A DNA stretch of 63,998 nucleotides, filler included, from Malassezia furfur (Eukaryota), in the NCBI GenBank assembly GCA_052055015.1. It is 3 parts of 3 records of this genome, joined end to end, with 100 filler letters (N's around TTAATTAATTAA, not from the genome) between each part and the next. Parts side by side here need not be neighbours in the genome. Positions count along the whole stretch, not along the records: positions 44,446 to 63,998 come from JBQJIT010000187.1; 2 more parts are not named here. One strand, 5' to 3'. A program made the position numbers and the translations under genes. The stretch's first letter is position 1; every line of letters begins with the position of its first letter. Of the stretch, positions 7,483 through 63,998 are shown in pieces. The notes under the pieces were generated by a model, which searched no databases, was not told the DNA's origin, and worked only from the letters and a program-made list of their open reading frames with translations.

Positions 7483-7533
7483 GTGCGCGGACCTAAAAAA
7501 TGTCACAGTGCGCGGACCTAAAAAATGTCACAG
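7483..7533. repeat. Perfect 25-bp tandem duplication (GTGCGCGGACCTAAAAAATGTCACA x2)
   Basis: Read directly at 7483-7507 and 7508-7532. Confidence 0.95.
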
Positions 7534-8160
7534 CCACATAGAGCCGGCAATAATTCGATAAGACGTACCCCAGGATTACATTGAGCTGTTCTCGTACGCA
7601 AGCCCCCCAACCTTAGCAGACACACTGTTGACCAGACCGTACATGGAGGTAGCGTCGCCGTAATACAGAGCCTCTTTCGCCCTAATTACAATGTTGCTCT
7701 TGTCCATAAGCACAGATGACACTCGCACTGTATCCGTATCGGCCATACCTGACTACCTAGCTATGGCGCTCGTGTTTAGATTGTCCTAGCTCCCGGATGA
7801 TACCACCTGCTCTCGTAGCTTCGATGTGTTCGAGCATGTTCGCATTGATCGAATTGTGGCACGCATCGGTTCTACTCCGAGGCACAAAGCCCGGGGATGC
7901 ACCGTGCCAAACGTCACAGATCCGTGGACCGATCGATGCTAACAGCGCCTTTAGAATATGCACCGATTCCCCCGTGTCAACTTTAATTGGCCTCAATGTG
8001 CACGTGAGGCGCGGGGCCGCATACACTTTTTCCCAGCGTGCAGTCCGTACACATTATTGCCTGGTCTGTTCGCGCCAATTCACCGTGGTTGACACGGAAA
8101 ACAGTCGACCTGTGGCGCCGCATTACTTCCATCTTCCAAGCCCTTCCAACGTCTGCCAAG

Positions 8161-44445: not shown

Positions 44446-46408
44446 CACTTCTTCGTCCGCACGGCGCGGCGCGGCGGGCGCGGCGGGCGGCGCGGCATAC
44501 AGCGCCAGCACGTCGCGCAGCACCCGCCACGCACTCACCGGCTCAGGCAGGTGCCACAGCACGACGCTGGGCGCCGCGCCGAGCGGCGAGACGAGCGTGC
44601 CGCGCGTGCCGACGGGCAAGAGCAGACGCGTGCACGGCACGGGCATCGCACGGCGCACGACGTACTGCACACCGGGCGCGCCGGGCGTGTCGAGGATCTC
44701 GTAGGGCGCCAAGCCCGGCGCGCCGGGCGGCAAGACGAGCGCGAGCGTCGGCAGCTGCGCGAGGTAGTCGAGCGTCGCGGCGCTCGCCTCGGCGGCCGCG
44801 CTGCCGGGCACCGGTACACGGAATGCGTCGGGCGCCGCGTTGCCGCTCAGGGCATACGCAAGCTGCACCAGCGGCAAAAACGACGCAGGGAAGCGGCGGC
44901 GCGCGGTCGTCAGCGTGCTGGCGCGCGTCTCGTGCGGGAGGTCGGCGGTCCAGAATTGCAGGCAGAGCGACGCAACGCCCTCGGCCGCATCGGGCGCGAG
45001 CGTCTCGCGGCCCGCGCCAAACGCCGCGCCGTACAGGCGGACAAGCGCATCGTAGTCCCCGAGGTACTCGGGCTGCACCAGCTCGGTGAGGCTGAGCAGC
45101 AGCCCCTTGAACACGGCGCGGTACGCGAGCGCCGACAAGTCGGACGCGCCCAGCACCGCGCTGTCCGTGCCGCCCAGCAGCGGCGAGGCGAGCAGCGCAT
45201 GCAGCACGCCAAACAGGTCCATCGACGGATCGAGCGCGCCATGTGCGAGGCGGCGCCACATCGGCGCCCCGCCGTCGTGCACGGCGACGACCGCAGCAAG
45301 GCGCGCGTCGGGCGCGGCCTCGAGGCGCTCGTCGAGGCGACGCAGCAGCAGTGCATAGCCGAGCAGCAGCGGCGCATAGTACACGAGCGACGCTGCGCCA
45401 TCGAGGACCTCCAGCGCGCCCTCCACCGCCTCTGGATCGGCGACGAGCGGCGCGAGCGCCGCGTCGTCGGCGTGCGGCGCGCCGTCGAGCGGCTCGAGTG
45501 CGGCCTCCAAGTTGAGGCACTCGATCGCCAGGAAAAGCAGGAGGTGTGCGACGCACTCGACCAGCACCGACGACGGCACGTCGAGGAAGCCGGCGTTCGC
45601 CTGGCGCTGGCCGAACTGGGTGCGCTGGATCGTGCGCAGCGCCGCGAGCGTGAACGCGGCCGTGGGCTGCAGACGCCCATAGTACAGTAGGAAAGCCACT
45701 TCGAGGAGCGCCAGCTGCTTGCACAGTCCCTGCCGCGCCCAGAGCAGCGTGTACCGCACGTCGTTGCGGATCGCCGGCGGGAGCGCCTCCTGCGTCTCGC
45801 GCTCGAACCATTCGAGGACCTGCGTCGCAAACGATGCGTCTGCAAACTGGTCGAGCACCGCATGGGCCATTGTGTACAGCTCGTTCTGGGCGTCTTCGGA
45901 GATGCGCAGCAGCGCACTGATGCACCGGATCACCGCGAGCTGCTCCTCAAAGAAGAACACGGTAAAGGCGTCAAGGAACTCGGTGAAGGCGCCGTCTGCG
46001 CCGCGCGCGGTGCCGAGCGTGTCGAGCGCGCGGTGCTCGCTCTCGAGGAAGGTACGCAGCAGCGCCAACGCTTCGCCTTCGTCGACGTCGAAGCGGTCGC
46101 TGATCGCGCGCGCGAGCTCGCGCTGCACATCGTCTACGCGCACATCCACACCGCGCACACGCACCGTGTCCTTGTCGAGCGCGGCGCGCGCGCTGGCGCT
46201 GCGCGTCGGCAGTGCGGCACCGCACGCACGGAGCTGCGGGAGGCGCTGCTCGAGCAGTGCCTGCAGCTCGCTCGGCGGCTGTGTGTGGTATGCACGCTCC
46301 AACTGCTCGTACAAGTCATGGAACGAGCTGCGTCAGTCTCGTCACCTACACAAACGCGTGCGCAGCCGCGGCGGGCGTTGACGCCCCGCCGGTCTGCTGC
46401 TCCACCAT
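44446..46408 (-). CDS. NUP188: Nucleoporin Nup188-like N-terminal region, 3'-truncated at gap
   Basis: ATG 46408, intron 46328-46349; Leu-rich helical protein with FFEEQLAVIRCISALLR and RRFPASFLPLVQL. Confidence 0.6.
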
Positions 46409-46456
46409 CCGCGACGGTCGCGAGAGCGCACAGGGAAATCTTCGGCCGAGACACAA

Positions 46457-48149
46457 CTATGGCGGGCGCGCGGCGGGCGACGTCGCCGCGTCGAACGACG
46501 GCGGGTGCGCCCGTTCGCCGGGGGTCGTCGGCACGCTCTCAAGCGGCGCGCATGTATACACAAAGTCCGTAGCGGGAGGGAGGGGGGTATGCACAACGTT
46601 CACGGGGGGCAAAAGCTCGTGCACCGCTGGCGTTTGGTCGCGCGCGGACTCGTAGCTCGGCAGGCTGATCCACTCGAGCGACGTGTGCGAGTGCGTGAGC
46701 GTGATGGGCACACCAATCACCACATCGACAATCCGCCGGTGCGACTCGGCGTCGGGCAGCGCACTCGTGCCGGGCACCGACGACGCACGCGGCGCGTCGC
46801 CGCGCTCCACCCGGATCGTGATCTTGAGCAGGTGCTGCACGGTGATGTTGGACTTGGGGTGCTGGCACGAGATGTTGACCTTCTTTTGCTGCACCATCGA
46901 CACACGCAGGTCCATCGCCAGCTCCCACGGGCCATTCGGATCGAGCGGCGCAACACGGATCGCGTCTGCCTGCGCCGCATTCTGCTGCGCAGCGGCTTCG
47001 ACGTACGGCGCGAGCGGCGACGTGGCCAGCGGGTCGTCGTGCTCCGTAAGGATCGGCAGCAGCGGGCGCTCCCCATCGCCGTTCAGACGCAGCATCGTCC
47101 ACTTGCGCGGCACTTCGCGGCGCATCGTGCGCCGCTCGTTCGCATAGTAGTCGGTCTGCTCCTCGAGCGCGACCGTAATCCGGTGGATCTTGATCTTGCC
47201 AATGGGAACCATCTTGAGCGACACGGGGATGTGCGTGCCGATCGGGAAACTGCTCCCGCTGATCGCCAGCATATACGACAGCATGTCCTCACACGTGCGC
47301 GACACGACAATCGACTCGGCCGCCGCCGAATTGTCCGCGTCGGGCATCTGCACGAGCGTCACTTCGCGCTGTGTGGTGAGATTCGCGGCGAGCGGGCCGC
47401 TCCGGTACGCGGTCGCCTTGAGCATGTACTCCAGGTGCCCAAAGTCGGCGTGCAGTGTCGCAGGGAGGTCAATGGGGAGCGACATGCTAAACGGATACTC
47501 GTACGCCCCCTTGCGCAGCTCGAACCACTCGGCCGCCGGCGCCTTGCCGGGCGCAGCCGGATCGACCGCGTCGGCGGTCGGCGGGCGCGTGGGGATGCGC
47601 AGGCCGTCCAGGAATCCCTTGAGCGGCTTCTTCTTGGACGTGCCGTTCGGCGTGCGCGCCGCAAGCGCCGCGTGCGCATCCGAGTGCCGTTCGCGCCCAA
47701 TGTCGTCGAGGCGCGTGAGCAACGCGCCATTGCCGCGTGTCTGTGGCCCCGGTAGCGGCATCGACTCGGGCTGGATCGACTCGGGGATACGGTCAAGCGC
47801 GATGGGCGTGCCGAGCGTCGAGCGAAAAATGCTCGTCTTGAGTCGGAGCAAAGGAACCTGCTCGGCGACTTCGATACGGTTCTGCCCGATCCCTGTGTGA
47901 GCGGACGGCGTACCTTCGGGCCAGTCAGTGCGCACGATTCCGGTCAGCGTAAGCACAATGTCCTTGATTCGTGTCGGCTTCGGCAGCGAGAGCGTGACTT
48001 TGCCACGGAGCTGGGGAGGCGGCGCATCGTGGTCTTCCACGATCGACGGCCCACGGTCCGGCCGAGGGCAAGAGAGGAACACGACAGGCTCTGCAACTGC
48101 GTAAGAACACACACGACGCACACTCGATTTGCAGCGTAGGGCCCACCAT
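46457..48149 (-). CDS. Alpha-arrestin (ART) ubiquitin-ligase adaptor, 3 exons
   Basis: LRGKVTL..TDWPEG|IG..GAYEYPFSMSLP..LPATL arrestin-N; C-terminal LPSY motif; introns 48097-48121 and 47893-47913. Confidence 0.85.
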
Positions 48150-48307
48150 CAGTCCAAGCTTGGGGTCCTACTCCCGGCCCATCGCCGGTCGCGCAGAGAA
48201 TGGGGTGTTGGAATACCGTATTCCCCCGCGTGAATTTTGGTTCTGACTAAACCTGCGACGCAAGATCGAGCCAGTGCAGCGCCACGCCGTGCGTTTTCAC
48301 CACCACA

Positions 48308-49356
48308 ATGTCCCTACAGAGCCAGGCTGTACTGCCTCCGCTGCTCATCACGACCAAACAGCTTGCAGGGCTGCTGGGCGCGCAGAAACCGCTGCGCATT
48401 CTCGATGCCACCTGGTTCCTCGGCATGCCGGGCCAGCCGCCCCGCAATGCGCACGCCGAGTTCCTTCGTGGGCCCCGCATCCCCGGCGCCCTGTTTTGGG
48501 ACGTGGACAAGGTCGCGACGGTCGGGCCCGAGGTCCACAACCTGCCGCATATGATGCCGTCGGGCTCCGTGTTTGCTCGCGCCGCGAGCGAGCATGGGAT
48601 AGGTCCTGATACACACGTCGTGGTCTACGTACGTCACCGAACTCACACAGGACACGCATGGGTGCGTCGCTCACCGCCTCACACAGCATTTTCTCTGCGC
48701 CGCGCACGGCCTTCACGTTTGCCGCCTTCGGACACAAGGCCATCTCGGTGCTGGACGGAGGTCTTCCCGCATGGATCGATGCCGGCGAGAAGATCGACAC
48801 CGAGTCGCTCAGCAGCGACCCTGCCGTGAAGCCGGTTGACTACCCTGTGCCGACGCTGCGTGATGGATGGATCCGATCGTTCGACGAGATGCTCGCCAAC
48901 ACCAAGCTGGGCTTCCGAAGGCAGGCGGTGCTGGATGCGCGGCCGAAGGTGCGCTTCGACGGCCATACCGCCGAGGCGCGCCCCGGCCTCGCGTCGGGGC
49001 ACATCCCTGGCTCGCGTTCGCTGCCGTTCATGGACGTGCTCGACCAGCACACGACGTCGGATGCGCGCATGCCGGAGCAGAAGTACACGACGCTCAAGCA
49101 GCAGTCCGACCTCTGGAAGCTCGTCAACGCCGCGGTCGGCGGAGACGATGGGATCGAGAAGCTGCGCCACGACGGGAGCTCGAGTGGGTCGCTGGGCGTG
49201 TCGCTCTCGTGTGGCAGCGGCATGACGGCGAGCATTCTTTGGCTGGCGCTGCAGCAGCTCGGCGTGAACGCGGCGATCTACGATGAGAGCTGGATGGGCT
49301 GGGGCCGCCGCAGTGCAGCCGGCGAGGCGCCCGTCGACGTCACGCCCAAGGAATAG
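48308..49356 (+). CDS. TUM1: 3-mercaptopyruvate/thiosulfate sulfurtransferase (tandem rhodanese), 3 exons
   Basis: LDATW..RIPGA..HMMP..VY|DTHG|IFSAPR..SGHIPGS..SCGSGMTA..YDESW; introns 48629-48650 and 48662-48686. Confidence 0.9.
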
Positions 49357-49383
49357 GTTCGCTCGTCTCTACGGTATCTAGCA

Positions 49384-50082
49384 CTACACAAGGACATCGT
49401 CGTACGTAATGCCCTCTGCCGGTTAGGAGAGTATACGTACTCAAGGAACCCCCCGCAAGCGCGCGCTTGACATGGTTGGCAAATGAGGCGCGGTCGCGGC
49501 GCAGATCCTCGGCGGCCTCTGGGTGTGAGCGCGGCGTACGGAAAGGTACGTACCTTTGTTCAGCGGGTCGTCGGGGTTCGGGTCGAGGAACAGGAACTGC
49601 AGGCCGACGAGCACCGAATTGAGGTTCAGGATCGGATTCCACTCCTCGCGCAGGATATTGAGGCATACGTTGCCCTCCAAGTCGAGGTTCGGGTGGTAGA
49701 GCTGCGTGAGCCGTGCGGCGTACCTTTTGGACGCACCGCACCTTGGGCGGGTCGTGCGGGTAGTTGTTGTTGATGGCGACCGTGAAGCGGAATGCGCCGC
49801 CCTTGTACATGCCTGGATCAGTGTGTGGCGTGCGCACCCTCGTCTGGCGTGATGGTGACCTCGAAGTGCATCAGGTCCGCCGGATCAGGGAACTGCGTCT
49901 TCATCGTGCTGGGCAGCTCCAGTTCCGTGAGGTCTGCGTGAGTGGTGAGAGCATACGCACCCTTTTGCACACGCAGCTGTGCGGGTGAGGTTTTGGGCCG
50001 CTGCTTCTTCGCCTCGTCGGCCTCCTTCTTCTGGCTCCAGAGCTGCGGTCAGTGCGCCGCGGGGGCCGCGTACATTGATCAT
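49384..50082 (-). CDS. UBC12: NEDD8-conjugating enzyme Ubc12, 7 exons
   Basis: [41 protein letters not shown]; introns 50043-50073, 49934-49960, 49813-49837, 49702-49723, 49519-49553 and 49416-49440. Confidence 0.92.
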
Positions 50083-50125
50083 GGTGGACCGCTGACTAAG
50101 CCCGCTCTTGTGCATTTGCGCAACC

Positions 50126-51524
<1,399 letters not shown>

Positions 51525-51545
51525 ACGCCCGTAGACGCTATCGTG

Positions 51546-52463
51546 CTAGGCATGTACCGCACGGCGCACGCCCTGTATCACCGAGCGCGTCGCCCACAGC
51601 ACGGCGAGCAGCGTCAGTGCCAGCACCGCGGGATAGAGCGTCACGTTGCCGACCGGTACGGGCGTGGTCATGGCGGTCGTCGCGCGCGGCAGCATCTTGG
51701 GCATGTACAGCGCCTGGTCATTCGGCGCAAGCGCCGCGCGCAGCTCGGTGCGCAGGTGCGCGTGCGTGCTGGGCAGCACATCGTCGACGTCGACCTCGTG
51801 CCAGACCATCGTGTCCGGCATGGACGCACATGCCGCAAACACGACGGGCCCGCCGTCCGCGATGATCGGCACATGTTCGTAGTGCTGCTCGCCCCAGCGC
51901 CGGATGCGCGGCGCAATGGTCGTCGCCCATGTGTGGTGGATGCGGTGCGCGGCGTGCGCGACGGCGTGCGCGGCGCCGTGTGCGCCATCTGTGTCGTCAT
52001 GCGCGTCCTCGGGGGGCGCGTCCCGGTGCGGCGCGCGCGCAGGGTGGTAGCGCACGTGCAGAGGGATGTGCACCTGCGTGTCGAGCGCGTCCGCAGCGCG
52101 GGGTGCGAGCTCGAGAAGGACGGCGGTGTGCTCGCACGTCGGCCCGTGGCACGATGGCATCACGCGCGCCAGCGCAGTGGTCGGCACGTCCTCAACGGAG
52201 ACTTCGACCTCGCCGACCTCGGCGTCGGAAGCCCAGCCGACGGGCTTCTCGAGCTCGACGTGCCCGAGGAACTGCACGTCGCTCACCGGCTCGGAGCGCT
52301 CCATGCGCGCGGTGTACGGGTCGAAGAACACGTCTGGCGGCAGCGGAGCAGCGATGTACACGGTGCACTGCTCCGCGCGGGCGATCTCGCCCGGCACCGT
52401 GACGACGAGCCGCGGGGCGAAGGAGCGCTGCGCCTCCGCCGCGTACTCCACCGTGGGGTCCAT
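51546..52463 (-). CDS. PIG-X/Pbn1-family GPI mannosyltransferase I subunit
   Basis: LPPDVFFDPY..ELEKP..IPLHVRYH..VPVG followed by a C-terminal TM segment. Confidence 0.7.
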   Translation of the reverse strand: MDPTVEYAAEAQRSFAPRLVVTVPGEIARAEQCTVYIAAPLPPDVFFDPYTARMERSEPVSDVQFLGHVELEKPVGWASDAEVGEVEVSVEDVPTTALARVMPSCHGPTCEHTAVLLELAPRAADALDTQVHIPLHVRYHPARAPHRDAPPEDAHDDTDGAHGAAHAVAHAAHRIHHTWATTIAPRIRRWGEQHYEHVPIIADGGPVVFAACASMPDTMVWHEVDVDDVLPSTHAHLRTELRAALAPNDQALYMPKMLPRATTAMTTPVPVGNVTLYPAVLALTLLAVLWATRSVIQGVRRAVHA

Positions 52464-52484
52464 CGTAGTGCGGGGTGGGGAAGT

Positions 52485-52502
52485 GCACGTGGTACCACGT
52501 GC
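52485..52502. promoter_or_regulatory. 18-bp perfect palindrome GCACGTGGTACCACGTGC (double E-box) in a divergent promoter
   Basis: Read directly between the PIG-X and 6PF2K start codons. Confidence 0.6.
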
Positions 52503-52556
52503 TGGCGCGCTCAGGGCACGGCGGCGGCGGCGGCTGCCCCGCAAGCGCTCCACACC

Positions 52557-54629
52557 ATGGCGCAGGAGCAAGAAACGCCCTCGACGCCGCTGTCGCCGGA
52601 CCCTGCGGAGCCCGTGCCCGTGTCAAAGTTCACATCGGTGCACGGCGATGCGCTTGCGCATCCCTCGGGTAGCGTCACGCCGACACCGATCCCCAGCGCA
52701 GACACCGATACGGGCGACGGCGCGGCGGTGACGCCGCCGGCGACCGCGCGGCCGCGCGCGCCGTCGGTCGCGCCCGAGCTGCTATCACGCCCTGCATTCG
52801 CGCCCGATGCAACGATGCGGCGCAAGTTCGAGGAGAAGGTGGCCACGACGCCGCTTGGATCGACGTCCGATGGCCTGCTGGCGCTGCTGCGCGACCACCC
52901 TGAGCTGGTGTCGGACGAGCTCGCGAAGGAGGCGGAGAAGATCCTGCCGAGCGAGGTGACGCTGCCACTGTCGCATGGGTCGAGCAGCTACATAAGCACG
53001 CCGAACGAAGCACAGAACGTGGCGAGCACGCTGTTCCCCGGCGACCCTGCGCACGAGACGCAGGCCGAGGTGCTGAACCCCGTGGGCCCGACCTTCCCGC
53101 TGCCCGATGTCGCGCGCCCCGTGCTGCAGTCGGTGGACAGCTCGAGCCGCTTCCACAAGATCCGCAAGGCGAGCATCTCGAGCGCGCAGCCGAGCACGCC
53201 GAACCTTGGGCAGACGGTGGCGGCGCCCGACCACCGAGAGGAGAAGATTGTCGTGGCGATGGTCGGTCTGCCCGCGCGCGGCAAGAGCTACCTGAGCAAC
53301 AAGCTGATGCGCTACCTGCGCTGGCGCGAATACAACGTCAAGGTGTTCAACGTCGGCCAGCTGCGCCGCGCCACGGCGCGGCTCCGGCAGGAGAAGACGG
53401 GCGTGCGCGAGGAGCAGACCGCCGCGTTCTTCGACTCGCACAACGCCGTGGGCCAAAAGATGCGCGACGAGCTCGCGCGCGAGTGCCTCGAGCAGCTGAT
53501 TGGCTGGCTGCGCGACGGCCCCGGCAACGTCGGCATCCACGACGCGACCAACACCACCAAGCAGCGGCGCCGCGAGATTGCCGAGCGCGTCGCACGCGAG
53601 CCAGGCATGCGCCTCGTGTTCCTCGAGTCGATCTGCACGGACCCCGCGGTGATCGAGGAGAACATCGAGGTGAAGGTGTCGAGTGCGGACCCCGACTACT
53701 TCCACCTCGACCGCGCACAGGCCAAGGAGGACTTTCTGCGGCGCATCAAGCACTACGAGGATGTGTACCAGCCGCTGGATGCGGACGGCGACGAGAGCAT
53801 GTACAGCTACTGCAAGATTGTCGACGTCGGCCACAGCGCGACGATGAACCTGATCAGCGGCTACCTCGAGTCGCAGATCGCCTTCTACCTGATGAACCTG
53901 CACGTCACGCCGCGGAACATCTTTTTCTCGCGCCACGGCGAGTCGCAGTTCAACGTCGAGGGCAAGATCGGCGGCGACTCGGACCTGTCTGAGCGCGGCT
54001 GGGCCTATGCGCGTGCACTGCCCAAGCTCATCCGCGAGCACGTTGGCGATGCGCCGCTCACCGTGTGGCACAGCTCGCTGCGCCGCACAGGGCAGACGGC
54101 GAGCATGCTCGACTACCCCAAACTCGTCTGGAACTCGCTCGACGAGCTCGACGCGGGTGTGTGTGACAGCATGACCTACGAAGAGATCGCCAAGTACTAC
54201 CCGGAGGACTATGCGAGCCGCGACGAGGACAAGTTCAACTACCGGTACCGTGGCGGTGAGAGCTACCGCGACGTGCTCGTGCGCCTCGAGCCCGTGATCA
54301 TGGAGCTCGAGCGCCAGGACAACATCCTGATCATTGGGCACCAGGCGATCATCCGCGCGCTCTATGCCTACTTCCACGGGTACGACCAGAACGAGCTGCC
54401 CTACATCAAAGTGCCGCTGCACACCGTCATCCAGCTCACGCCCAAGGCGTACGGTTGCGACGAAGTGCGGTACCAGCTGCCGATCGAGGCCGTGGATACA
54501 CACCGCGCGCGGCCGCAGCGCTCGCTCGCATCGAGCGTCTCGTCGCTCAATCTCGAGGGCGAGGAAGACGAGCGGATGCGCGCGTCTACCAGCCAGCCCC
54601 CCAGCCAGCGCCAGGCAGCGCGCAGCTAG
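52557..54629 (+). CDS. 6-phosphofructo-2-kinase/fructose-2,6-bisphosphatase
   Basis: VGLPARGKS P-loop, DATN and RHGES phosphatase His motif. Confidence 0.93.
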   Translation: MAQEQETPSTPLSPDPAEPVPVSKFTSVHGDALAHPSGSVTPTPIPSADTDTGDGAAVTPPATARPRAPSVAPELLSRPAFAPDATMRRKFEEKVATTPLGSTSDGLLALLRDHPELVSDELAKEAEKILPSEVTLPLSHGSSSYISTPNEAQNVASTLFPGDPAHETQAEVLNPVGPTFPLPDVARPVLQSVDSSSRFHKIRKASISSAQPSTPNLGQTVAAPDHREEKIVVAMVGLPARGKSYLSNKLMRYLRWREYNVKVFNVGQLRRATARLRQEKTGVREEQTAAFFDSHNAVGQKMRDELARECLEQLIGWLRDGPGNVGIHDATNTTKQRRREIAERVAREPGMRLVFLESICTDPAVIEENIEVKVSSADPDYFHLDRAQAKEDFLRRIKHYEDVYQPLDADGDESMYSYCKIVDVGHSATMNLISGYLESQIAFYLMNLHVTPRNIFFSRHGESQFNVEGKIGGDSDLSERGWAYARALPKLIREHVGDAPLTVWHSSLRRTGQTASMLDYPKLVWNSLDELDAGVCDSMTYEEIAKYYPEDYASRDEDKFNYRYRGGESYRDVLVRLEPVIMELERQDNILIIGHQAIIRALYAYFHGYDQNELPYIKVPLHTVIQLTPKAYGCDEVRYQLPIEAVDTHRARPQRSLASSVSSLNLEGEEDERMRASTSQPPSQRQAARS

Positions 54630-54770
54630 TCACCGGACACCGCGCACGGCCAGCTTTGCACCAAGCCTCGCCCGTTCGGAGCCTATGTGGAGAGGTTTGG
54701 CCTCGGCCCAAAAATGCGGCTATTTTTCCCTTAGCTCCACAGCGCACATCACTTCGGCTTCATACTACGT

Positions 54771-56522
54771 CTAGCGCCAGTGCGACATGCGCTTCTCTTC
54801 TGCGTGACGGCGCTTGACCATGGCGGCCACCTTCGGACCCCAGAATTCCTCCGGGTCGCTCTGCTCCTTAAGCACCTGCTCGTGTTCCCGCGCCTGCTTG
54901 CGGGAAAAGAGCACGACGTTGTTGTAGTCCAACGGCTTCTTCGGGTCCCAGCGCATGAGCTGGCCGGTGGCGAGCGACTCGTACGGCGGGACGACGGTGC
55001 GCCCACGGAACATCTCCTCAAAGATGTATGCACAGTCATTTACACTGAACGGAATGCGCACCACCGGCGGCGGGCCCTTGGCTGACTGCGCGGTCGAGCG
55101 GTACGTCGGCGGGACGTCATCGTCGGTGAGCGCGCGGCGGTTGGCGGGCGCAGGGTACGACTCGTCGCGCGGCGGCGAGGGGTAGCGCGACTCGGTCACG
55201 TTCAGGTCCGCAAACAGCTTCTCGTACAGCTTGCGGCGGCCCTTGACAGCTAGCGGCTCCATGCGATGCCGCGCGAGGTCGCACAAGATGTACGTCGCCG
55301 CTGCCAGCCCGAACATCGCCGGGAGGGGGCCGAGCACGGGCAGAATACGGACCCGGAAGTCGTCAAACGCCGCAAGCTCGCCGACGTCGCCCTTTTCCAT
55401 CTCCTCCTCTGACAGTGGCAGGAGTCGTACGTCCGACTTCTCTGTAGAGTATACACAGGGCACCTTCCACTCCTGGTAAAAGTCGTCCTCGGTGTACTTG
55501 GGCGCCTCAGCGACCTTGGGCGTCGACGGCTGCGCCGGCGACCCGGCGGGGGTCGAGTAAGAGTCGGAGCCCGTCTCGGATGCAGCCGAGGCGCGGCGTG
55601 TAGCGGATGGGCGCGCCTTGTCGGCGTCAGACGCGCGGTTCTTGTTCTTCTTGGCGCCTGGGTCTTTGGCGGGCTCCGAAATCACGCCGGGGATCGGCGG
55701 GACGCCAGCGGCACGCAGTTCGCGGCGGACGACGCGCGCAAGCGGGTCCTCGACGGTGGTCGAAATGTCGCTGATCTGGATCCGGCTCGGGTCCGCCTTG
55801 GCACCGGCGCCCATCGAGGCAAAGACGCGCAGGTTGTGCTGGTAGCAGTATTTGAGCAGCTCGACCTTGGTCTCGAGGTTATCGATGGCGTCGACGACGT
55901 ACGTCGGCTCGCCCTCCAGCAGCCTGTCGGCCTCGTCAGCGCGGAAAAGATCGACGCACGCCTCGACGTTCGCCCACGGTGCGATCTTGTGGAAGTATTG
56001 CTTGCAACACACCACTTTGGGGCGGCCGACGTCGGCGAGCGTCGCGCACGCGTGCCGGTTGAGTGACGAGAGCGACACTTGGTCAAAATCGATGAGGCGG
56101 ATGTGGCTGACGCCCGAGCGGAGCAGCATGAGCGCGGCCCAGCTGCCGACGCCGCCGGCGCCGACGACGATCACAAAGCTCTTGCGGATAGCATCCATAC
56201 CCTCTTCGCCAAAGAAGCTGTAGTTGCGGCTCAGCTGCTCGCGGATGAGTGCGTCGTCGTAGTTAGCATCGGGGGTGATGCCCTGCGCCTCGTGCATGCT
56301 CGCCGCGAGGCTCGCGGGCGGCACGTCGTGGGCTTCCGGGAGCTGCGTCGCTTCGCGCCGGGCCTCCTTGCGGACTTGGTCGGCGAGTTTACGCCTGCGA
56401 GCGCGGCGCACGACATGCTGGTACGTAAGCACGCTTGCGAGCGTCGCGACGGACGATACGGCCGCCGCGATACCCACAAGCAGCGCGCGCGACGGCGCGG
56501 CCGGCTCTCGGCGGACGCTCAT
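54771..56522 (-). CDS. tRNA threonylcarbamoyladenosine dehydratase (Tcd1/Tcd2, ThiF family)
   Basis: N-terminal TM, GAGGVGS, DFDQVSLSSLNRH, DAIDN and FRVRILPVLGPLP. Confidence 0.9.
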   Translation of the reverse strand: MSVRREPAAPSRALLVGIAAAVSSVATLASVLTYQHVVRRARRRKLADQVRKEARREATQLPEAHDVPPASLAASMHEAQGITPDANYDDALIREQLSRNYSFFGEEGMDAIRKSFVIVVGAGGVGSWAALMLLRSGVSHIRLIDFDQVSLSSLNRHACATLADVGRPKVVCCKQYFHKIAPWANVEACVDLFRADEADRLLEGEPTYVVDAIDNLETKVELLKYCYQHNLRVFASMGAGAKADPSRIQISDISTTVEDPLARVVRRELRAAGVPPIPGVISEPAKDPGAKKNKNRASDADKARPSATRRASAASETGSDSYSTPAGSPAQPSTPKVAEAPKYTEDDFYQEWKVPCVYSTEKSDVRLLPLSEEEMEKGDVGELAAFDDFRVRILPVLGPLPAMFGLAAATYILCDLARHRMEPLAVKGRRKLYEKLFADLNVTESRYPSPPRDESYPAPANRRALTDDDVPPTYRSTAQSAKGPPPVVRIPFSVNDCAYIFEEMFRGRTVVPPYESLATGQLMRWDPKKPLDYNNVVLFSRKQAREHEQVLKEQSDPEEFWGPKVAAMVKRRHAEEKRMSHWR

Positions 56523-56543
56523 GGCACGGACGAGGCCACGTTC

Positions 56544-56555
56544 CGTCACGTGACG
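56544..56555. promoter_or_regulatory. Palindrome CGTCACGTGACG (Cbf1/USF-type E-box) in the TCD/RPA190 divergent promoter
   Basis: Read directly in a 95-bp intergenic gap. Confidence 0.6.
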
Positions 56556-56617
56556 ACCAAACTTTTTTCGAGGGCGCACGGCGCTGCTTCCTTGCGAGTG
56601 CGCGCGACGTGGCGGCG

Positions 56618-59600
56618 ATGGACATTACGCGTGCGATCACGTCGTATGTCAAGTCGGCCTCGTTCTCGTTTCTGACGGCCGATGAGGTGCGCAGCATCTC
56701 GGTCAAGCAGATCGTGAACCCGGTGCTGCTCGACAATGCCAACGCGCCGACCGAAGGCGGTCTGTATGACCCGGCGCTCGGTCCCATGCGGCCGGACGAT
56801 ATCTGCCGGACGTGCCACCAGAACCACTTTGACTGCCCGGGGCACTTTGGGCACATGGAGCTGCCCTCCCCGGTGTTCCACCCACTGTTCATGAACCACG
56901 CCTATTCGCTGCTCCGCGGGACGTGCGTCTTCTGCCACCACTTCAAGATCTCGCGCGTGGCGATGGCCAAATACACGGCGCAGTTCCAGCTGCTGGACTA
57001 TGGCCTGGTGGATGAGGCGCAGGCGATTGCCAAGGAGCAGCTCAAGCGTCCGCTCGGCGCTGCCTCCGCCGCCGACGACGCCGCCGAGAGCGACGACGAG
57101 GGCGACGAAGACGCCGACGCCGACGACGCCGACGACAAGACGGAGCGCGCGGCGGTGCGTGCTGACAACGTCCCGATTGAGACCGTGGACGAGTTTGTGA
57201 AGCGCATTGCCGCCACTACGCGCGACCATATCCGCGGTGCGATCCGCCGCGGCGCGAAAAAGGGCGCCGACCATGGCTCGGCAGAGTATGCGGCGCGGCG
57301 CGACCTGCGCAACGTGTTCCTCAAGGATATCCTGCGCCGCCGCTGCGAGCGGTGCCAAGCGTACGTTGCCCCCCACTGACCCAGGATGAACCCTACGCTG
57401 CGCAAGGACGGCTTTGTGAAGATCACCGAGCGGGTGTTGTCCGCGCGCGACGCGGCCATCCATGAGGCGCGCGGCATCAAGCGCGACAATGTGCTGCTGG
57501 ACCGCGGCGCGCCTGCGGCGGCTCGTGCGGCGCCGGATGCGGAGCCGATGGTCGTTGACAGTGCGGACGCCGAGGCGCCGACGCCGGCGCTCTCGCTCAA
57601 GGATGCGCGCAAGCTGAGCAAGGATGCCGGCGACTCGACGCGCGTCGTGCCTGCGAGCGAGTGTCGTGCGAACTTGCGCCGCCTCTTTGCGAACGAGGCC
57701 GAGATCTGTGCGCTGATCTTTGGCAAGCACCCCGTGTTTGCCTCGGGGGCCGCGGCGCCGAACGCCGACGTCTTTTTCCTCGAGACGATCTGTGTGACGC
57801 CGACGCGCTTCCGCCCCGCGAGTGTGATGGGTGACCAGACGTTTGAGAACGCGCAGAACGAGCTGCTGACCAAGATTCTGCAGACGTCGTTCCTGGTGCG
57901 CGACCGCAATGTGCAGGCGCAGGCGTTCCAGAAGAAGAGCAACTACCCCCTGCTGGACGGCGTCGAGGAGGCGCAGGCCCTTGTGCTGCAAAAGCGCTGG
58001 GAGGCCGACCGGCGTATGGCGATGGACCTGCTGCTGAGCGCGATGATGGAGCTGCAGGTCGCGGTGAACTGCTACATCGACTCGTCTAAGAACCCGGCGC
58101 CGATGCGGCAAGGACAAGCGCCGCCGCCGGGTGTGAAGCAGGGCCTCGAGAAGAAAGAGGGTCTCTTCCGCAAGCACATGATGGGCAAGCGCGTCAACTT
58201 TGCGGCGCGCTCGGTGATTTCGCCCGACGTCAACATCGAGACGAACGAGATTGGTGTGCCGCCCGTGTTTGCCAAGCGGCTGACCTACCCGGAGCCGGTG
58301 ACCGTGCACAACTACGAGTTGATGCACCAGCTGGTGATCAACGGCCCCGACACCTACCCCGGTGCGCTGGCGGTGCGTGCCGAGGACGGCAGCGAGACGC
58401 TGCTCAAGCACCTCTCGGTTGAGGAGCGCACGGCGCTCGCCAACCAGCTGCTGACGCCGCAGGGCCAGACGTCCAAGCAGGCGCTCGGCACGTTTGGTGG
58501 CGTGGGCGGCACGCTGCGGACGCCTGTGGCGAACAAGCAGGTGCTGCGCCACCTGCGCACGGGCGACATCCTCGTGATGAACCGGCAGCCGACGCTGCAC
58601 AAGCCGTCGATGATGGCGCACAAGGCGCGTGTGCTGCAGGGTGAGCGGACGATCCGCATGCACTACGCCAACTGCAACTCGTACAATGCCGACTTTGACG
58701 GCGACGAGATGAACATGCACTTCCCGCAGAGCCAGATGGCGCGCGCCGAGTGCTACAACATCGCCAACACAGACAACCAGTACCTTGTGCCGACGAGCGG
58801 CAACCCCCTGCGTGGCCTGATCCAGGACCACGTCGTGGCGGGCGTGTGGATGACGTGCAAGAACACGCTGTACACGCGCGAGGAGTACAACCAGCTGCTC
58901 TACGGCGCGCTCCGCCCCGAGAACTACGGCGCCACCGGCCGCATCCTGACGGTGCCGCCCGCGGTGCAGAAGCCGGTGGCGCGGTGGACGGGCAAGCAGG
59001 TGATCACCACGATCCTGCTGAACCTCAAGCCGGCGCACGCCGTGGGCCTCTACCTGCGCTCCAAGGCCAAGGTCGCGGGCCGCTTCTGGGGCGCGGAGCA
59101 CAAGGAGGAGGAGACGGTGGTGATCGACGACGGCGAAATGCTCACGGGCGTGCTGGACAAGTCGCAGATCGGCGCGTCGGCCTACGGCCTGGTGCACGCC
59201 GTGTACGAGATCTACGGCGCAGAGTCCGCTGGGCGCCTGCTGAGCATTCTGTCGCGCCTGTTTACCATGTGGCTGCAGGCGAATGCGTTCTCGTGCCGCA
59301 TGGACGACCTGCTGCTCAGCCAGCAGGGCGACGCGGAGCGCCAGGCGCTGCTTGCTGAGGGCGCGACGATCGGCCTCGACGCGGCGATGCGCAACGTCGG
59401 CCTCGAGGGGCAGAGCGCCGCGGATCCGGACACGAACTACAACCTGCGCCGGCGTCTCGAGGAGGTGCTGCGTGACGACACGAAGCTTGCGTCGCTCGAT
59501 GCGGACGAGATGTCGGCGTCGAACAAGCTGACCTCGGCGGTGATCAACGCGTGCATCCCGTCGGGCCTGCTCCGCCGCTTCCCGGAGAACAACATGCAGA

Positions 59601-61843
59601 TGATGACCGTGTCGGGTGCCAAGGGCAGTGCGGTGAACGTCTCGTCGATCTCGTGCCTGCTCGGTCCGCAGGCGCTCGAGGGCCGCCGCGTGCCGGTGAT
59701 GGTGAGCGGCAAGACGCTTCCCTCGTTCCGCCCCTTTGACACGGCGGCGCGCGCGGGCGGCTTTGTGGCGAACCGCTTTTTGACGGGCATTGCGCCGCAG
59801 GAGTACTACTTCCACTGCATGGCCGGCCGCGAGGGGCTGATCGACACGGCGGTCAAGACGTCGCGCTCGGGCTACCTGCAGCGCTGCCTGATCAAGCATC
59901 TCGAGGGCGTCTCGGTGCAGGCGGACCAGACGGTGCGCAACAGCGACGGGTTTGTGCTGCAGTTCCACTACGGCGAAGATGCGCTCGATGTGACCAAGAG
60001 CAAGTACCTCGACCGCTTCGACTTCACCGCGCAAAACTTTGAGAGCTACCGCCGGCGGTACAACCCTGCGCAGCTCGAGGAGTCCGTCGAGGTCGAGGAG
60101 GCGCCCGAGTACATGAAAAAGGCGCTCAAGAAGCCGCACAAATACCCGCCGGTGCTCAGTGTGTACCCTCCCGCGCGCCACTTTGGCTCGATGTCGGAGA
60201 CGTTTGCGCGCAAGGTCGAGGAGTACGTCGCGTCCAATCCGAGCAACCTGCTCGCGCCGAAGAAGAAGAAGGGCGCCGCCGAGCCCGGGCTGGCCACGGC
60301 GCGCCCCAAGCTCGGCGTCGAGCCGTTCCGGGCGATGACCAAGGTGCTCTACCACCGCGGCCTCGTCGAGCCCGGCGAGAATGTCGGGCTGCTGGCCGCG
60401 CAGGGTATCGGCGAGCCGTCGACGCAGATGACGCTCAACACCTTCCACTTTGCCGGCCACGGCGCGGCGAACGTTACGCTCGGCATTCCGCGTCTGCGTG
60501 AGATTGTGATGACGGCGTCGAAGGACATCAAGACGCCCATCATGCGCCTGCCCGTGTGCGAGGGCATCACCGACGCGCAGATGCGCACCTTCTGCAAGGA
60601 CGGCAGCCGCCTTGTGCTGAGCCAGATTGTCGAGGAGGCGACCGTCACTGAGCGCGTGCTGCCCAAGACGCCGGCGAATGGGTACCAGCGGCAAAAGATG
60701 TACACGGTGCACCTTGCGCTGTACCCCGCCGACGAGGTGCGCGAGGAGTACAACACCTCCACCGAGCACGTCCTGGCGGGCCTCGAGGCGACCTTTGTGC
60801 CGCTCGTCGAGCGCGAGATCCTGCGCGAGCTCAAGCGCCTGCGCCGGGACCACGTGCGCCAGACGCAGTCGATCGGGCAGGGCGAGACGTTTGCGTCTGC
60901 GGCGCGCGACGAGGAGGACGCCGAGGCGCCCGCGCAGCGCACGGCGGACGACGACGAGGACGACGAGGAGAGCGGCAACGTGTCGGACACGGGCGACGAC
61001 GACGCGGACGCTGCCAAGCGTCGCGCGAACGCCAGCAGCCAGGTCTCGTACGACGACGGCGCCGAGCGCGACGACGACGACGCGGAAGTGAATGCCGCGT
61101 TCCAGGACGAGCGGCTCGTCGACGACGAGGCCGCCGAGGAGGGCGCCGAGCCGATCGAGACGCGCATCTCGGACCTCGACGAGCGGCTTACGAGCGAAAG
61201 CAAGTTTGTCACCGGCTTCCGCTTCGACACGCAGCACGGCGCGTGGGCCGAGTTCGATCTGCAGATGGACAATGTCACGGAGAAGATGCTGCTCATCAAC
61301 GTGATCGAGCGCGTGTGCCGCGCGAGCGTCGTGCACGAGATCCCGCGCATCGCGCGCATCATGATCCCGCCGCCGACGCCGGGCGACAAGAGCGTCGCAC
61401 TCACCGCCGAGGGCATCAACCTCCCGGGCATGTGGGAGTTTGGCTTTGGCGTCGTCGACATGAACCGCATCTACTCGAACGACATCGGCGCGCTGCTGTA
61501 CGCCTACGGTGTCGAGGCCGCACGTGCGGCGATCGTCAGCGAGCTCAAGGGCATCTTCGACACCTACGGTATCGGGGTCTCGATGCGCCACCTCTACCTC
61601 ATCGCCGACTACCAGACGGCGTTTGGCGACTTTAGGCCGTTCAGCCGCGGTGGGTTGGCCGACTCGCCCTCGCCGCTGCTCAAGGCCAGCTTCGAAATGA
61701 CCATGGCGTTCCTGAGCGGCGCATCGCTGTTCCAGGAGTCGGACGACTTCACCTCGCCCTCGGCCAACATCGTCGTGGGCCGGCCGGTGCCGACGGGCAC
61801 GGGCGCTACCACGATCCACATGCCGCTTGCGGCGAGTGCATAG
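56618..61843 (+). CDS. RPA190: RNA polymerase I largest subunit, 2 exons
   Basis: GLYDPALGP, CPGHFGH, KKEGLFRKHMMGKRVN, catalytic NADFDGD and TLNTFHFAG; intron 57361-57384. Confidence 0.97.
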
Positions 61844-61849
61844 CGTACA

Positions 61850-63518
61850 TTAGCCTGTCTCTCTACGGATTTTTCGCACACACCGCGCGAGCGACACCCG
61901 CGGCGCCGCACGCCAGTCGTCGGCGTATGCCACAGCGGCGGCCGGCGGCGCATGACGGTCGGGCAGCGGCGCAACGTGACGCGCAGGAACCTCGCGCTTC
62001 AGCACGCCGTACGCCGTGCAGATGCGATAGCCGCGGTCAGACCGGTGTCCGACCACCAGCCCCGGAATGCGGTAGTCGTCGAGCGGTGCTCGGTCAATGC
62101 CGTGCACGGCCACACTCACCGGTGTGCCCGGCGTATACGGTGTGTACGCGTGCCGGCGCTCCCAAGCATGCACCATGCGCCGCTGCTCCTTGGCGATGTG
62201 GTCACGCGTCTCACCTTCGACCTCGGTCGAAGCCAAGAACGCCGCCGTCTCCGGCGCATCCGAAGCGCCGTCGGGATCGGCAGAACCTAGGACCAGGTCC
62301 TCGGTCACAGGCAACGCCCGCCGGAGAATCGGCCGCCGTGAAAAGACAACCTCGTAGGGCGTCTTACCAACGGTCGTGTGCTTCGACATATTGCAAGCCA
62401 TAGCAATGGATGACAGCGACTGTGTCCAGTGCCGCTGGTGAAAGCGGCGGCACCACTTGGCAATCAACCGCCGCACATGGCCATTCGCGCGCTCTACGAG
62501 GCCCTGACTCCGTGGACGCCCCGGAGACCCGCGACGGATCACGATGTGGTGCTCGCGCGCAATGCGCGCGATAGCTTCATTTACAAACGCCTCACCATTG
62601 TCCATTTGCAGTACCGCCGGCGGTCCGAGCATGGCCATCCACTCGAGAAGGTAGCGAACCACCTCTCCTTGTGTCCCCTGTTTGAGAGGATACAACATGC
62701 AGAACCGCGAAAAGTGGTCCTTGATGTGCAGGATCCACTGGTACTCGCCATCAGGCTCACGGCGCATATCGATCATGTCCACTTGTACTCGCTCCATGAC
62801 TCGCTGTGTCACAATCGCTTGGATGGGTGCGGGGCGGAGACCCTGGCGTTGCCGCTGGCATAATTGGCATTGCCGGATGACATAGTCGACTACCCGTTTC
62901 GGGATACCTTGATACCGGCTTGAGATCTCGTGCCATGTCTTGTTTGTACCCTGATGATGAATGGCATTGTGCTCCTGGACAATCGTGTCCACGATGCGCG
63001 GCTGCGGAACGACGATGAGCGCGCCTTTGCGTTCGCGAGCATGGTAGAAGAGTTCATCATGATCGTTCAGGGTATAGCTGCGGCGTGTGCGATGTACAAA
63101 GGATGCAGTGCAGGCCGGGAGTGCTTTCAAGATCGAGGAAAGACTCTGCGACTCAGCGAGAAGCTGGAGAATGCGGATCCGGCTGTGGTATTGCTCCAGT
63201 GGCACGACACTCCGGAACGCCTGAGTGGCTAGCCAGGCTTGAATCGAGGTCTTCAGTTCTGCCGAAAATCCCGTGTCTTGGTGCTGAACGGATGGTGACG
63301 GAAGACACAGCGTATCCGAACCACAGGAATGCATGGCATCGCACTCCTCACCGATTACCCCACAGTTGCGTGGATTGCGGGCACGATCCCCAACCCGATA
63401 CAGGGCAGACGGGTAGTGGTGGAACCTGGGCAAGTGAAGAAAAAAACAATCCCGGTAGGTACCAGGAGCTCGGCTGGACGTCGTCGCCTGTGGCGTTTGA
63501 TTTAGAATAGGGCATCAT
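61850..63518 (-). mobile_element. Stand-alone integrase/transposase gene (HHCC + rve DD35E; Ginger2/KRBA2-like), 2 exons
   Basis: EHNAIHH..CQLC zinc finger; QVDMID, QMDNG and SQGLVE with exact D-35-E spacing; no RT, RNase H or gag. Exon 1 (63518-63463) joins in frame via intron 63426-63462. Confidence 0.85.
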
Positions 63519-63943
63519 TAGAGCAAGGAGGCAGGCAGTTCAAAAAAGTTTAATTAATTTCGAAGATCGTGGAGGAAAATCAATAAATGTTCGCCGCCGA
63601 CCGGGAACATAGCCCAGTCAAAAAGGCACCAGGACGACTTGGCCAGGGAGTATCGTCCAGCTCAGTTGTACCGCCTTAGTGCTAGTACAAAAAGCATTGC
63701 ATGAGAAAGAACCATAAGAAGAACGCATCGGGTGTTTAGGGCACTCCTGCACAACCAACGAACCAAAAGGTAGCGAACAGAACACACCTCCATTAGGCAA
63801 GAAAGTTCACGACTGGAATACCCTTTGGTTCAGACCATGTTCACCAAAATAACTCAAGTGTTGTCATAGCCTGCATGTAGTAGCCATCACAGGCAACAAC
63901 TACCCTGAGAAAAATCAAAATGAGGAAACACGACATTAAAAGA

Positions 63944-63998
63944 ATACCATGCTTAACTTCGCAGATCGGACGGGATACGGTGTTTTCATGGTTCTGTG
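63944..63998 (-). rRNA. 5S rRNA 5'-half fragment (runs off the window at its 5' end, truncated after box A)
   Basis: Minus strand reads CACAGAACCATGAAAACACCGTATCCCGTCCGATCTGCGAAGTTAAGCATGGTAT, matching fungal 5S nt ~10-64, then diverges into TCTTTTAA. Confidence 0.85.

Follow-up and report, generated by a model that had tools for sequence, protein, structure and literature searches.

A probably domesticated Ginger2-type integrase gene in a conserved block at a likely ribosomal DNA border of Malassezia yeasts

The DNA studied here is a stretch of 63,998 nucleotides from Malassezia furfur (assembly GCA_052055015.1), called the window below, near whose end (record JBQJIT010000187.1, positions 44,446 to 63,998) an integrase gene lies downstream of a broken 5S ribosomal RNA (rRNA) gene. 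The original prediction saw in this pair a candidate 5S-associated DNA transposon. Comparison with related loci led us to a different reading, in which we have good confidence: the integrase is probably an immobilised, domesticated Ginger2-type gene, situated in a conserved block at the border of the ribosomal DNA (rDNA), and it is not mobile now. We infer domestication from a pattern typical of domesticated transposases, because the gene is intact in 20 lineages, its motif residues never vary, its neighbours are kept where the integrases themselves are only 45-49% identical, and the ratio of nonsynonymous to synonymous substitution rates (dN/dS) is around 0.2, a weak indication.

The integrase gene and its motifs, in positions of the window, are as follows.

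61850..63334, minus strand: integrase gene in one exon (494 codons and a stop codon), encoding the annotated product P0001 of 494 aa
62858..62971, minus strand: HHCC zinc-binding motif (H122, H127, C156, C159), invariant in 20/20 aligned sequences
62492..62779, minus strand: catalytic core, with D186 (62779-62777), D245 (62602-62600) and E281 (62494-62492), codons read, invariant in 20/20 aligned sequences

From N- to C-terminus, the protein is composed of an N-terminal helical domain, the HHCC zinc finger, the DDE core, a long helix and a small beta-barrel C-terminal domain. D245 and E281 are separated by 35 residues, the DD(35)E arrangement. Pfam rve was matched at 2.2e-12 and Integrase_H2C2 at 1.1e-4, the latter under the curated cut-off. 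The best solved relative in a sequence search of the PDB was the prototype foamy virus (PFV) integrase (3.5e-17), and the integrases of PFV and Ty3 were the best matches in both sequence and fold. On the AlphaFold2 model of the protein, with a mean predicted local distance difference test (pLDDT) of 74, PFV integrase chains align over nearly the whole length and the Ty3 integrase was also matched. This structural alignment over nearly all of the PFV integrase suggests a full multi-domain build for the window protein, in which every part for metal-dependent DNA cleavage and joining appears to be present. The co-oriented, intact HHCC/DD(35)E integrase of the original prediction was therefore recovered, with the Pfam rve match, the PFV match and all seven motif residues seen. 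The gene had also been described as spliced, and this had to be given up: P0001 is one open reading frame (ORF), 63334-61850, whose coding frame needs no splicing, and the homologues in the three orthologous loci described below (L001, L002 and L003) are single ORFs too, collinear with the window gene. An upstream ATG at 63518 was considered as the integrase start and ruled out, as it opens a separate 56-aa ORF (63518-63348) whose sequence is absent from all 20 aligned integrase homologues. The distance of 430 bp first given between the 5S and the gene is correct when counted to this upstream ATG; from the 5S break to the annotated start codon it is 609 nt.

The closest named protein to the integrase is a hypothetical protein of Malassezia furfur (88% identity), and a second cluster includes M. 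sympodialis MSYG_3522. A word-indexed search returned 20 full-length relatives at 43-88% identity, the next matches being Gypsy-type polyproteins at E 2.5e-12. When every protein was searched with a profile, 810 proteins were found at E <= 1e-30, and the last Malassezia representative had a score of 673 bits; at P0122, ranked directly below it, the score was down to 363 bits. Across the 20 aligned sequences there are 89 invariant columns, which include all 7 HHCC and DDE residues and 82 others. A maximum-likelihood tree was made from 59 rows: the 20 Malassezia proteins, 36 integrase-only proteins from the top of the profile search and, as outgroup, the integrase parts of three Gypsy polyproteins. 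All 20 Malassezia integrases formed one clade (SH-aLRT 100), separate from the three Gypsy polyprotein integrases, in which two pairs branch off early and the other 16 proteins form a clade of their own, divided into groups of 5 and 11. The shape of this tree, on which three lineages are labelled, seems to resemble the three-clade structure of the genus outlined in a published account (PMC7426719).

Beyond Malassezia, the next relatives are integrase-only proteins of 400-680 aa, and the named ones are from ascomycetes (Metarhizium, Scytalidium, Lasallia and Pseudogymnoascus). The Metarhizium cluster P0125 holds 6 accessions, all from M. majus strain ARSEF 297, in one 90% cluster, and six accessions from the same strain are what a mobile element present in several copies would be expected to leave. 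The Metarhizium relative is annotated as "SCAN domain-containing protein 3", while the nearest ESM Atlas cluster of the window integrase is labelled "KRAB-A domain-containing protein 2-like" (score 0.97). P0122 and P0125 carry a cysteine-rich C-terminal tail of 40-60 residues with CxC-type spacing, which we take to resemble CXC domains; none of the Malassezia proteins (20/20) has it, and the tail may have been lost upon domestication.

A scan of metagenome contigs gave six further loci, of which three clear orthologues (L001-L003) were compared. The remaining three, L004-L006, were set aside (integrase identity of 28%, 34% and 49%, the last two on contigs of 1.7 and 1.1 kb). A scan of viral contigs gave 49 pattern matches and no relatives. 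The four DNA loci, including the window, represent three lineages. L001 is a 21.5-kb stretch of a 219-kb contig, with an integrase that shares 99% identity with the 568-aa cluster P0012. The same species was assembled independently in L002, 99.2% identical to L001 over 4.8 kb with the same junctions, on a contig that begins 71 nt before the 25S end. The L003 integrase is 97% identical to the M. sympodialis-group ORF P0062; this locus begins with the last 40 nt of the 5S and a T-run, and about 430 nt on come RNase T2, integrase and convergent RPA190. The gene orders that matter for the comparison are these.

L001, in order: DEAD helicase, SF3a60 and RING protein; 25S end; intergenic spacer 1 (IGS1); 5S; RNase T2; integrase; convergent RPA190; ThiF; 6-phosphofructo-2-kinase (PFK2)
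L001 8345-9346 and L003 485-1450: RNase T2 gene, between 5S and integrase

The integrase is followed by a convergent RPA190, the largest subunit of RNA polymerase I, in all four loci, and ThiF and PFK2 come after it in the window and in L001. This synteny is kept across lineages whose integrases are only 45-49% identical, so that the genes behave as syntenic orthologues (4/4 loci, 3 lineages), as a domesticated gene does. A 5S lies upstream of the integrase in 4/4 loci, and 0.6-1.9 kb separate the integrase from this terminal 5S.

These loci bear directly on the idea that the integrase belongs to an active or recent DNA transposon that targets the 5S gene, having inserted just after box A or captured a 5S fragment. 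Seen in the window alone, the idea has some appeal: the 5S stops abruptly and is followed by co-oriented, AT-richer DNA and an intact integrase with all catalytic residues. The integrases of yeast retrotransposons are guided to RNA polymerase III (Pol III) genes, and Ty3 on a TFIIIB-bound tRNA gene (7q5b) is among both the structural and the sequence matches of the window protein; its sequence matches also include the integrase chain 7z0h, labelled only "Integrase" and presumably part of a Pol III complex. In three of the four loci (L001, L002 and L003), however, RNase T2 separates the 5S from the integrase, and the two do not abut. The 5S is broken near position 64 in the window and near position 87 in L001 and L002, and in L003 its 3' end is intact; no insertion point is shared. 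The integrases are one clade with one version per lineage, the neighbours are the same where the proteins are only 45-49% identical, and terminal inverted repeats (TIRs) are missing, with 6 bp left before the RPA190 stop. We thus find 5S targeting highly improbable. Site-specific insertion into a 5S gene, as first proposed, and capture of a 5S piece by a transposon are not supported, in view of the intervening RNase T2 in 3/4 loci, the differing 5S ends, the lack of transposon ends and a gene that behaves as if inherited vertically, one per lineage, and not as a repeated element.

No transposon ends were seen around the gene. The features on its 3' side are as follows.

61844..61849, no strand: gap of 6 bp between the integrase and RPA190 stop codons (integrase stop at 61852-61850)
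56618..61843, plus strand: RPA190, RNA polymerase I largest subunit, convergent with the integrase (tblastn, 76.6% identity over 1760 columns with the L001 orthologue)

The two stop codons are 6 bp apart in the window, and the corresponding gaps in L001 and L003 measure 48 bp and 13 bp. There is no room for a transposon terminus on the 3' side of the window integrase, because only 6 bp remain before the RPA190 stop. No credible terminal inverted or direct repeats were found flanking the integrase, only low-complexity repeats of GC-rich coding sequence; the longest inverted repeats nearby are of 23-32 nt, with 70-88% complementarity, between GC-rich coding stretches. The TIRs of Ginger2/Tdd elements are described as about 50-300 bp long with TGTNR ends (PMC2836005), and the window integrase has no such repeats. 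The 4-5 bp target-site duplications of these elements, made at AT-rich sites, would here have no termini to flank. Reverse transcriptase and RNase H are absent among the window neighbours (RPA190, ThiF and PFK2), and a scan of eight large ORFs in the 21.5 kb of L001 turned up, besides the integrase, nothing but ordinary host genes. In the 64-kb window the integrase gave one tblastn match, and with one 90% cluster per lineage it does not appear as a multi-copy family.

The alignment of RPA190 between the window and L001 reaches the C-terminus, and its Pfam identity was taken on the L001 orthologue. Past RPA190, the window carries a ThiF-family gene and then PFK2, as in L001. The RPA190 ORF begins at 57386 in the ORF list and the tblastn alignment at 56618, a difference that a short intron or in-frame stop close to the 5' end might explain. 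RPA190 encodes a subunit of the enzyme that transcribes rDNA and stands two genes from the rDNA border in all lineages seen, which is probably a coincidence.

A Gypsy-like integrase without reverse transcriptase, of the Ginger type, had been proposed from the window, and here the proposal agrees with the literature, in which the M. globosa orthologue is already listed as Ginger2-1_MG (PMC2836005). Bao, Kapitonov and Jurka (2010) placed the M. globosa protein XP_001728957.1 close to Ginger2 transposases and entered it as a "Ginger2-1_MG DNA transposon vestige" (PMC2836005); in their description it has no TIRs, and reverse transcriptase and RNase H are absent within 5 kb on either side (PMC2836005). 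The listed span of 1704 bp fits the 568-aa P0012 and the L001 gene, and from this Ginger2-1_MG is almost certainly the orthologue of the window integrase. The window protein has the H2C2 and DDE parts of a Ginger2/Tdd transposase, and it lacks an associated reverse transcriptase or RNase H. Its likely placement in Ginger2 rests on where the M. globosa protein falls in the tree of that paper, on the names under which relatives are filed (KRBA2-like and SCAND3) and on the separation of the Malassezia clade from the three Gypsy integrases. Like Ginger2-1_MG, it is an integrase-only Malassezia gene with no TIRs and no reverse transcriptase or RNase H nearby, and its neighbours are shared by L001. 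Unlike the "vestige" published for a single species, the gene remains intact in 20 lineages, where its catalytic residues do not vary, and it is syntenic and lies beside the rDNA, which suggests retention by selection and not decay.

The 5S part and the spacer between it and the integrase are made up of the following features.

63944..63998, minus strand: 5' part of 5S rRNA (RF00001, 40.1 bits; model positions 10 to about 64)
63335..63943, minus strand: spacer of 609 nt from the 5S break to the integrase start codon, GC 0.48, holding the 56-aa ORF (63518-63348)
63782..63794, minus strand: 13-mer AATGGAGGTGTGT, one exact copy, oriented like the 5S and 150 nt beyond its break

The 5' half of a 5S rRNA reported at 63998-63944 on the minus strand was confirmed with a score of 40.1 bits against an RF00001 gathering score of 38 (E 8e-05 over the whole window, 3.1e-06 over the last 2.5 kb). 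The first nine positions of the model are missing because the window ends at 63998. The likeness to 5S ends after ...AAGUUAAGCAUGGUAU, and beyond GGTAT the sequence is no longer 5S; cmscan crosses the break only by means of a 37-position deletion and a poorly matching forced tail. A full-length 5S of about 120 nt with all its helices is not present at the window end, and the genuine match covers model positions 10 to about 64 and no more. The break falls just after what we take to be the box A region. It had also been noted that no 5S 3' half lies elsewhere in the window, and the Rfam and blastn-short searches agree: the 5S 5' part is the one Rfam match in all 63,998 bases, and the matches of the 5S 3' end of L003 to the window span just 9-13 bases, the longest with one mismatch and all with E of at least 0.48. 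The window contains no tRNA genes. The DNA after the break is indeed AT-richer, as first described, with a GC content of 0.48 in the spacer versus 0.61 in the integrase and 0.67 in RPA190. RNase T2 is absent from the window locus and from the whole 64-kb window, and a tblastn search with two RNase T2 proteins revealed no remnant of the gene in the spacer (best E 0.69). Comparing the spacers between species revealed no homology except for the 5S itself and, within the RNase T2 genes of L001 and L003, a match of 67%.

The 5S part of the window and that of L001 (7971-8025) are identical at 52 of 55 bases. All three differences keep the pairing, with a double change from G-C to A-U and a change from G-U to A-U. 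The truncated 5S pieces therefore seem to follow the evolution of the functional 5S of each species, and they would be either young copies of the live 5S in each species or copies kept uniform with it. Because all three differences preserve base pairs, it is unlikely that the 5S piece is a nonfunctional relic predating the genus.

In L001 and L002, the 5S scores 65 bits, is co-oriented upstream of the integrase and is genuine to about position 87. It is part of an rDNA unit of the linked type, since IGS1 and the 25S end precede it. The 25S 3' end of L001 comprises the last 280 nt or so (102 bits) and that of L002 scores 52 bits; IGS1 of L001 is about 460 nt long (7503-7961). This IGS1, from an M. 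globosa-like locus, has long microsatellites of (CT)n and (GT)n, and variation of this type serves in the IGS1 strain typing of Malassezia. The original prediction had remarked in passing that the element was possibly at the edge of an rDNA array, and the 25S 3' end and IGS1 that precede the 5S in L001 and L002 fit this remark. The M. globosa rDNA has been described as an internal array with 30-40 units on Chr5, a chromosome assembled by joining two contigs that each run out in rDNA (PMC7025860). The L002 and L003 contigs end inside the 25S and the 5S, respectively. Most likely, then, the locus would be the border of the rDNA array, its last unit broken in the 5S, and an orphan piece is less likely. 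If the border reading holds, the short piece of rDNA between unique genes in L001 would be a collapsed array.

A history of the block can be proposed from these comparisons. A Ginger2-type cut-and-paste transposon would have entered an ancestor of Malassezia and lost its termini, after which the integrase would have been vertically inherited as one gene per species. It would have become part of a fixed block formed by the end of an rDNA unit (25S 3' end, IGS1 and 5S), RNase T2, the integrase and the convergent RPA190. In the furfur-group lineage, a deletion from about position 64 of the 5S through RNase T2 would then have placed the 5S 5' half next to the promoter region of the integrase. The product, with its NED-like, HHCC, DDE core and small barrel domains, would still bind metal and DNA and multimerise like a retroviral-type integrase, and it may have been kept for an activity in trans on host DNA, without ends of its own.

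Several observations weigh against a domesticated gene at an array border. The rDNA of L001 is only about 840 bp long with unique genes on both sides, which could be a collapsed array or a true orphan, and L002 reaches 632 nt into the rDNA piece before the contig ends, further than a simple repeat break predicts. The dN/dS values (Nei-Gojobori) are weak: 0.215 between the window and L003 comes with a dS of 2.1, close to saturation, and 0.234 between L001 and L002 is derived from 7 differences only. That the gene is single-copy is judged from the one cluster in each lineage and from the window. The GC content at third codon positions is lower in the integrase than in the adjoining RPA190 in all three species (0.68 vs 0.91, 0.72 vs 0.83 and 0.40 vs 0.47), as might be seen with low expression or with a gene that is integrated less fully than those around it. 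The annotated MSYG_3522 of M. sympodialis (P0061) corresponds to the last 132 aa of a 511-aa open frame (P0062); this gene model looks truncated and is probably under-annotated. Finally, the deletion in the furfur group is the simplest history suggested by comparison only, and no RNase T2 remnant marks the event.

The first two of these observations would be explained if the 5S half were an orphan rDNA relic, the present array lying elsewhere and the integrase being merely a neighbouring gene. Such a relic could account for some 840 bp of rDNA amid unique genes in the 219-kb L001 contig, and L002 assembles through IGS1 and 5S at ordinary coverage, as judged from the contig name. A relic older than the genus should have decayed, however, and the pieces match the Rfam models well, with three differences that keep the pairing. 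The ends of the L002 and L003 contigs inside the 25S and 5S are as expected at a repeat. In the published description, the M. globosa array is internal with two unique flanks, and a collapsed assembly of it would look like L001 (PMC7025860). On balance we consider an orphan relic rather unlikely. An assembly artefact, in which the 5S/spacer junction at 63944 is a chimeric join, is suggested by the difficulty of assembling rDNA borders, but another species shows comparable junctions between 5S and unique sequence in two assemblies made independently (99.2% identical over 4.8 kb), a third species has one as well, and we judge an artefact extremely improbable.

The spacer of the window holds one exact copy of the 13-mer AATGGAGGTGTGT, which occurs three times in the L001 25S-5S spacer, IGS1 (7563-7575, 7608-7620 and 7798-7810, plus strand). 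With up to one mismatch, 0.04 chance matches are expected in the 64-kb window, and a match was obtained in 4 of 100 shuffles. The 13-mer was not found in L003 at up to 3 mismatches. The copy in the window is a hint that the spacer past the 5S break is still rDNA-derived, and the 13-mer may be a candidate protein-binding site of the spacer, of the Pol I terminator or fork-barrier kind.

The same 13-mer is one of the points that could be explained by ancestral targeting, in which a Ginger2 element in the Malassezia ancestor landed in, or aimed at, an rDNA spacer or the neighbourhood of the array and was then immobilised. Its place next to the rDNA would then be a trace of the targets once chosen, and no matter of chance. 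Many transposon families are rDNA-specific, the integrase is within 0.6-1.9 kb of the terminal 5S in 4/4 loci, and a spacer-type 13-mer lies between 5S and integrase in the window. One insertion event offers no statistics, though, RNase T2 intervenes in most lineages, and Ginger2 elements are described as preferring AT-rich RTATAY sites, not rDNA (PMC2836005). Ancestral targeting is compatible with the domesticated gene that we favour, and we think it distinctly unlikely.

The domesticated Ginger2-type gene can be set beside several known systems. Dada, Ty3, Ty1, R1/R2 and Pokey are comparable in that a gene for an integrase or transposase lies next to a Pol III or rDNA gene that is broken. 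Those elements are multi-copy with defined ends and one shared target point, whereas the Malassezia gene is present in one copy, with no ends, variable breakpoints and an intervening host gene. A closer likeness is found with GIN1, GIN2, KRBA2, SCAND3 and Imagin, each a single-copy, intron-poor integrase gene kept long after the loss of the transposon ends. KRBA2 and SCAND3 are reported to derive from Ginger2 (PMC3575427), and Imagin is described as a domesticated Ginger-derived integrase gene of malacostracan crustaceans. The Malassezia gene differs from all five in being fungal, and it is not fused to KRAB, SCAN or other host domains. In the literature searched, nothing was found on genus-wide conservation, a domesticated character or an rDNA-border place of the Malassezia integrase.

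The replication fork barrier at which Fob1 of S. cerevisiae acts lies in the rDNA spacer that separates the 35S 3' end from the 5S. Fob1 is a fungal host protein with an integrase-like core, and it is reported to fall in the Ginger2 branch (PMC3575427). The Malassezia integrase is likewise of Ginger2 type and is encoded here beside the same kind of spacer where Fob1 acts. By analogy, it could be an independent, Fob1-like domestication whose product acts on the rDNA spacer, for example at repeated AATGGAGGTGTGT-type sites, a possibility that we put forward as improbable. The likeness is drawn from descriptions, and the position of a gene is no evidence of the site of action of its protein. FOB1 itself is not known to be encoded beside the yeast rDNA. 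No Fob1 chain was among the best 60 of 132 PDB profile matches, and none was named by the phmmer search of the PDB or by two ESM Atlas searches.

The domesticated-gene reading removes an unsupported claim of a new class of 5S-targeting transposon in fungi. In its place, a Ginger2-type integrase earlier noted as a "vestige" in one species appears to be kept intact genus-wide in the principal yeasts of human skin. Few domesticated integrases retain the complete catalytic triad, and most of these have no assigned function. The locus would also be a marker for the border of the rDNA array in Malassezia assemblies. CRISPR and Agrobacterium methods are described for M. furfur and M. sympodialis (PMC7426719). 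With small, transformable Malassezia genomes and Fob1 in yeast, a natural hypothesis is open to test: if it is true, the integrase would pause replication forks or nick and recombine repeats, and thereby maintain the rDNA copy number in yeasts that lack RNA interference and have few transposons.

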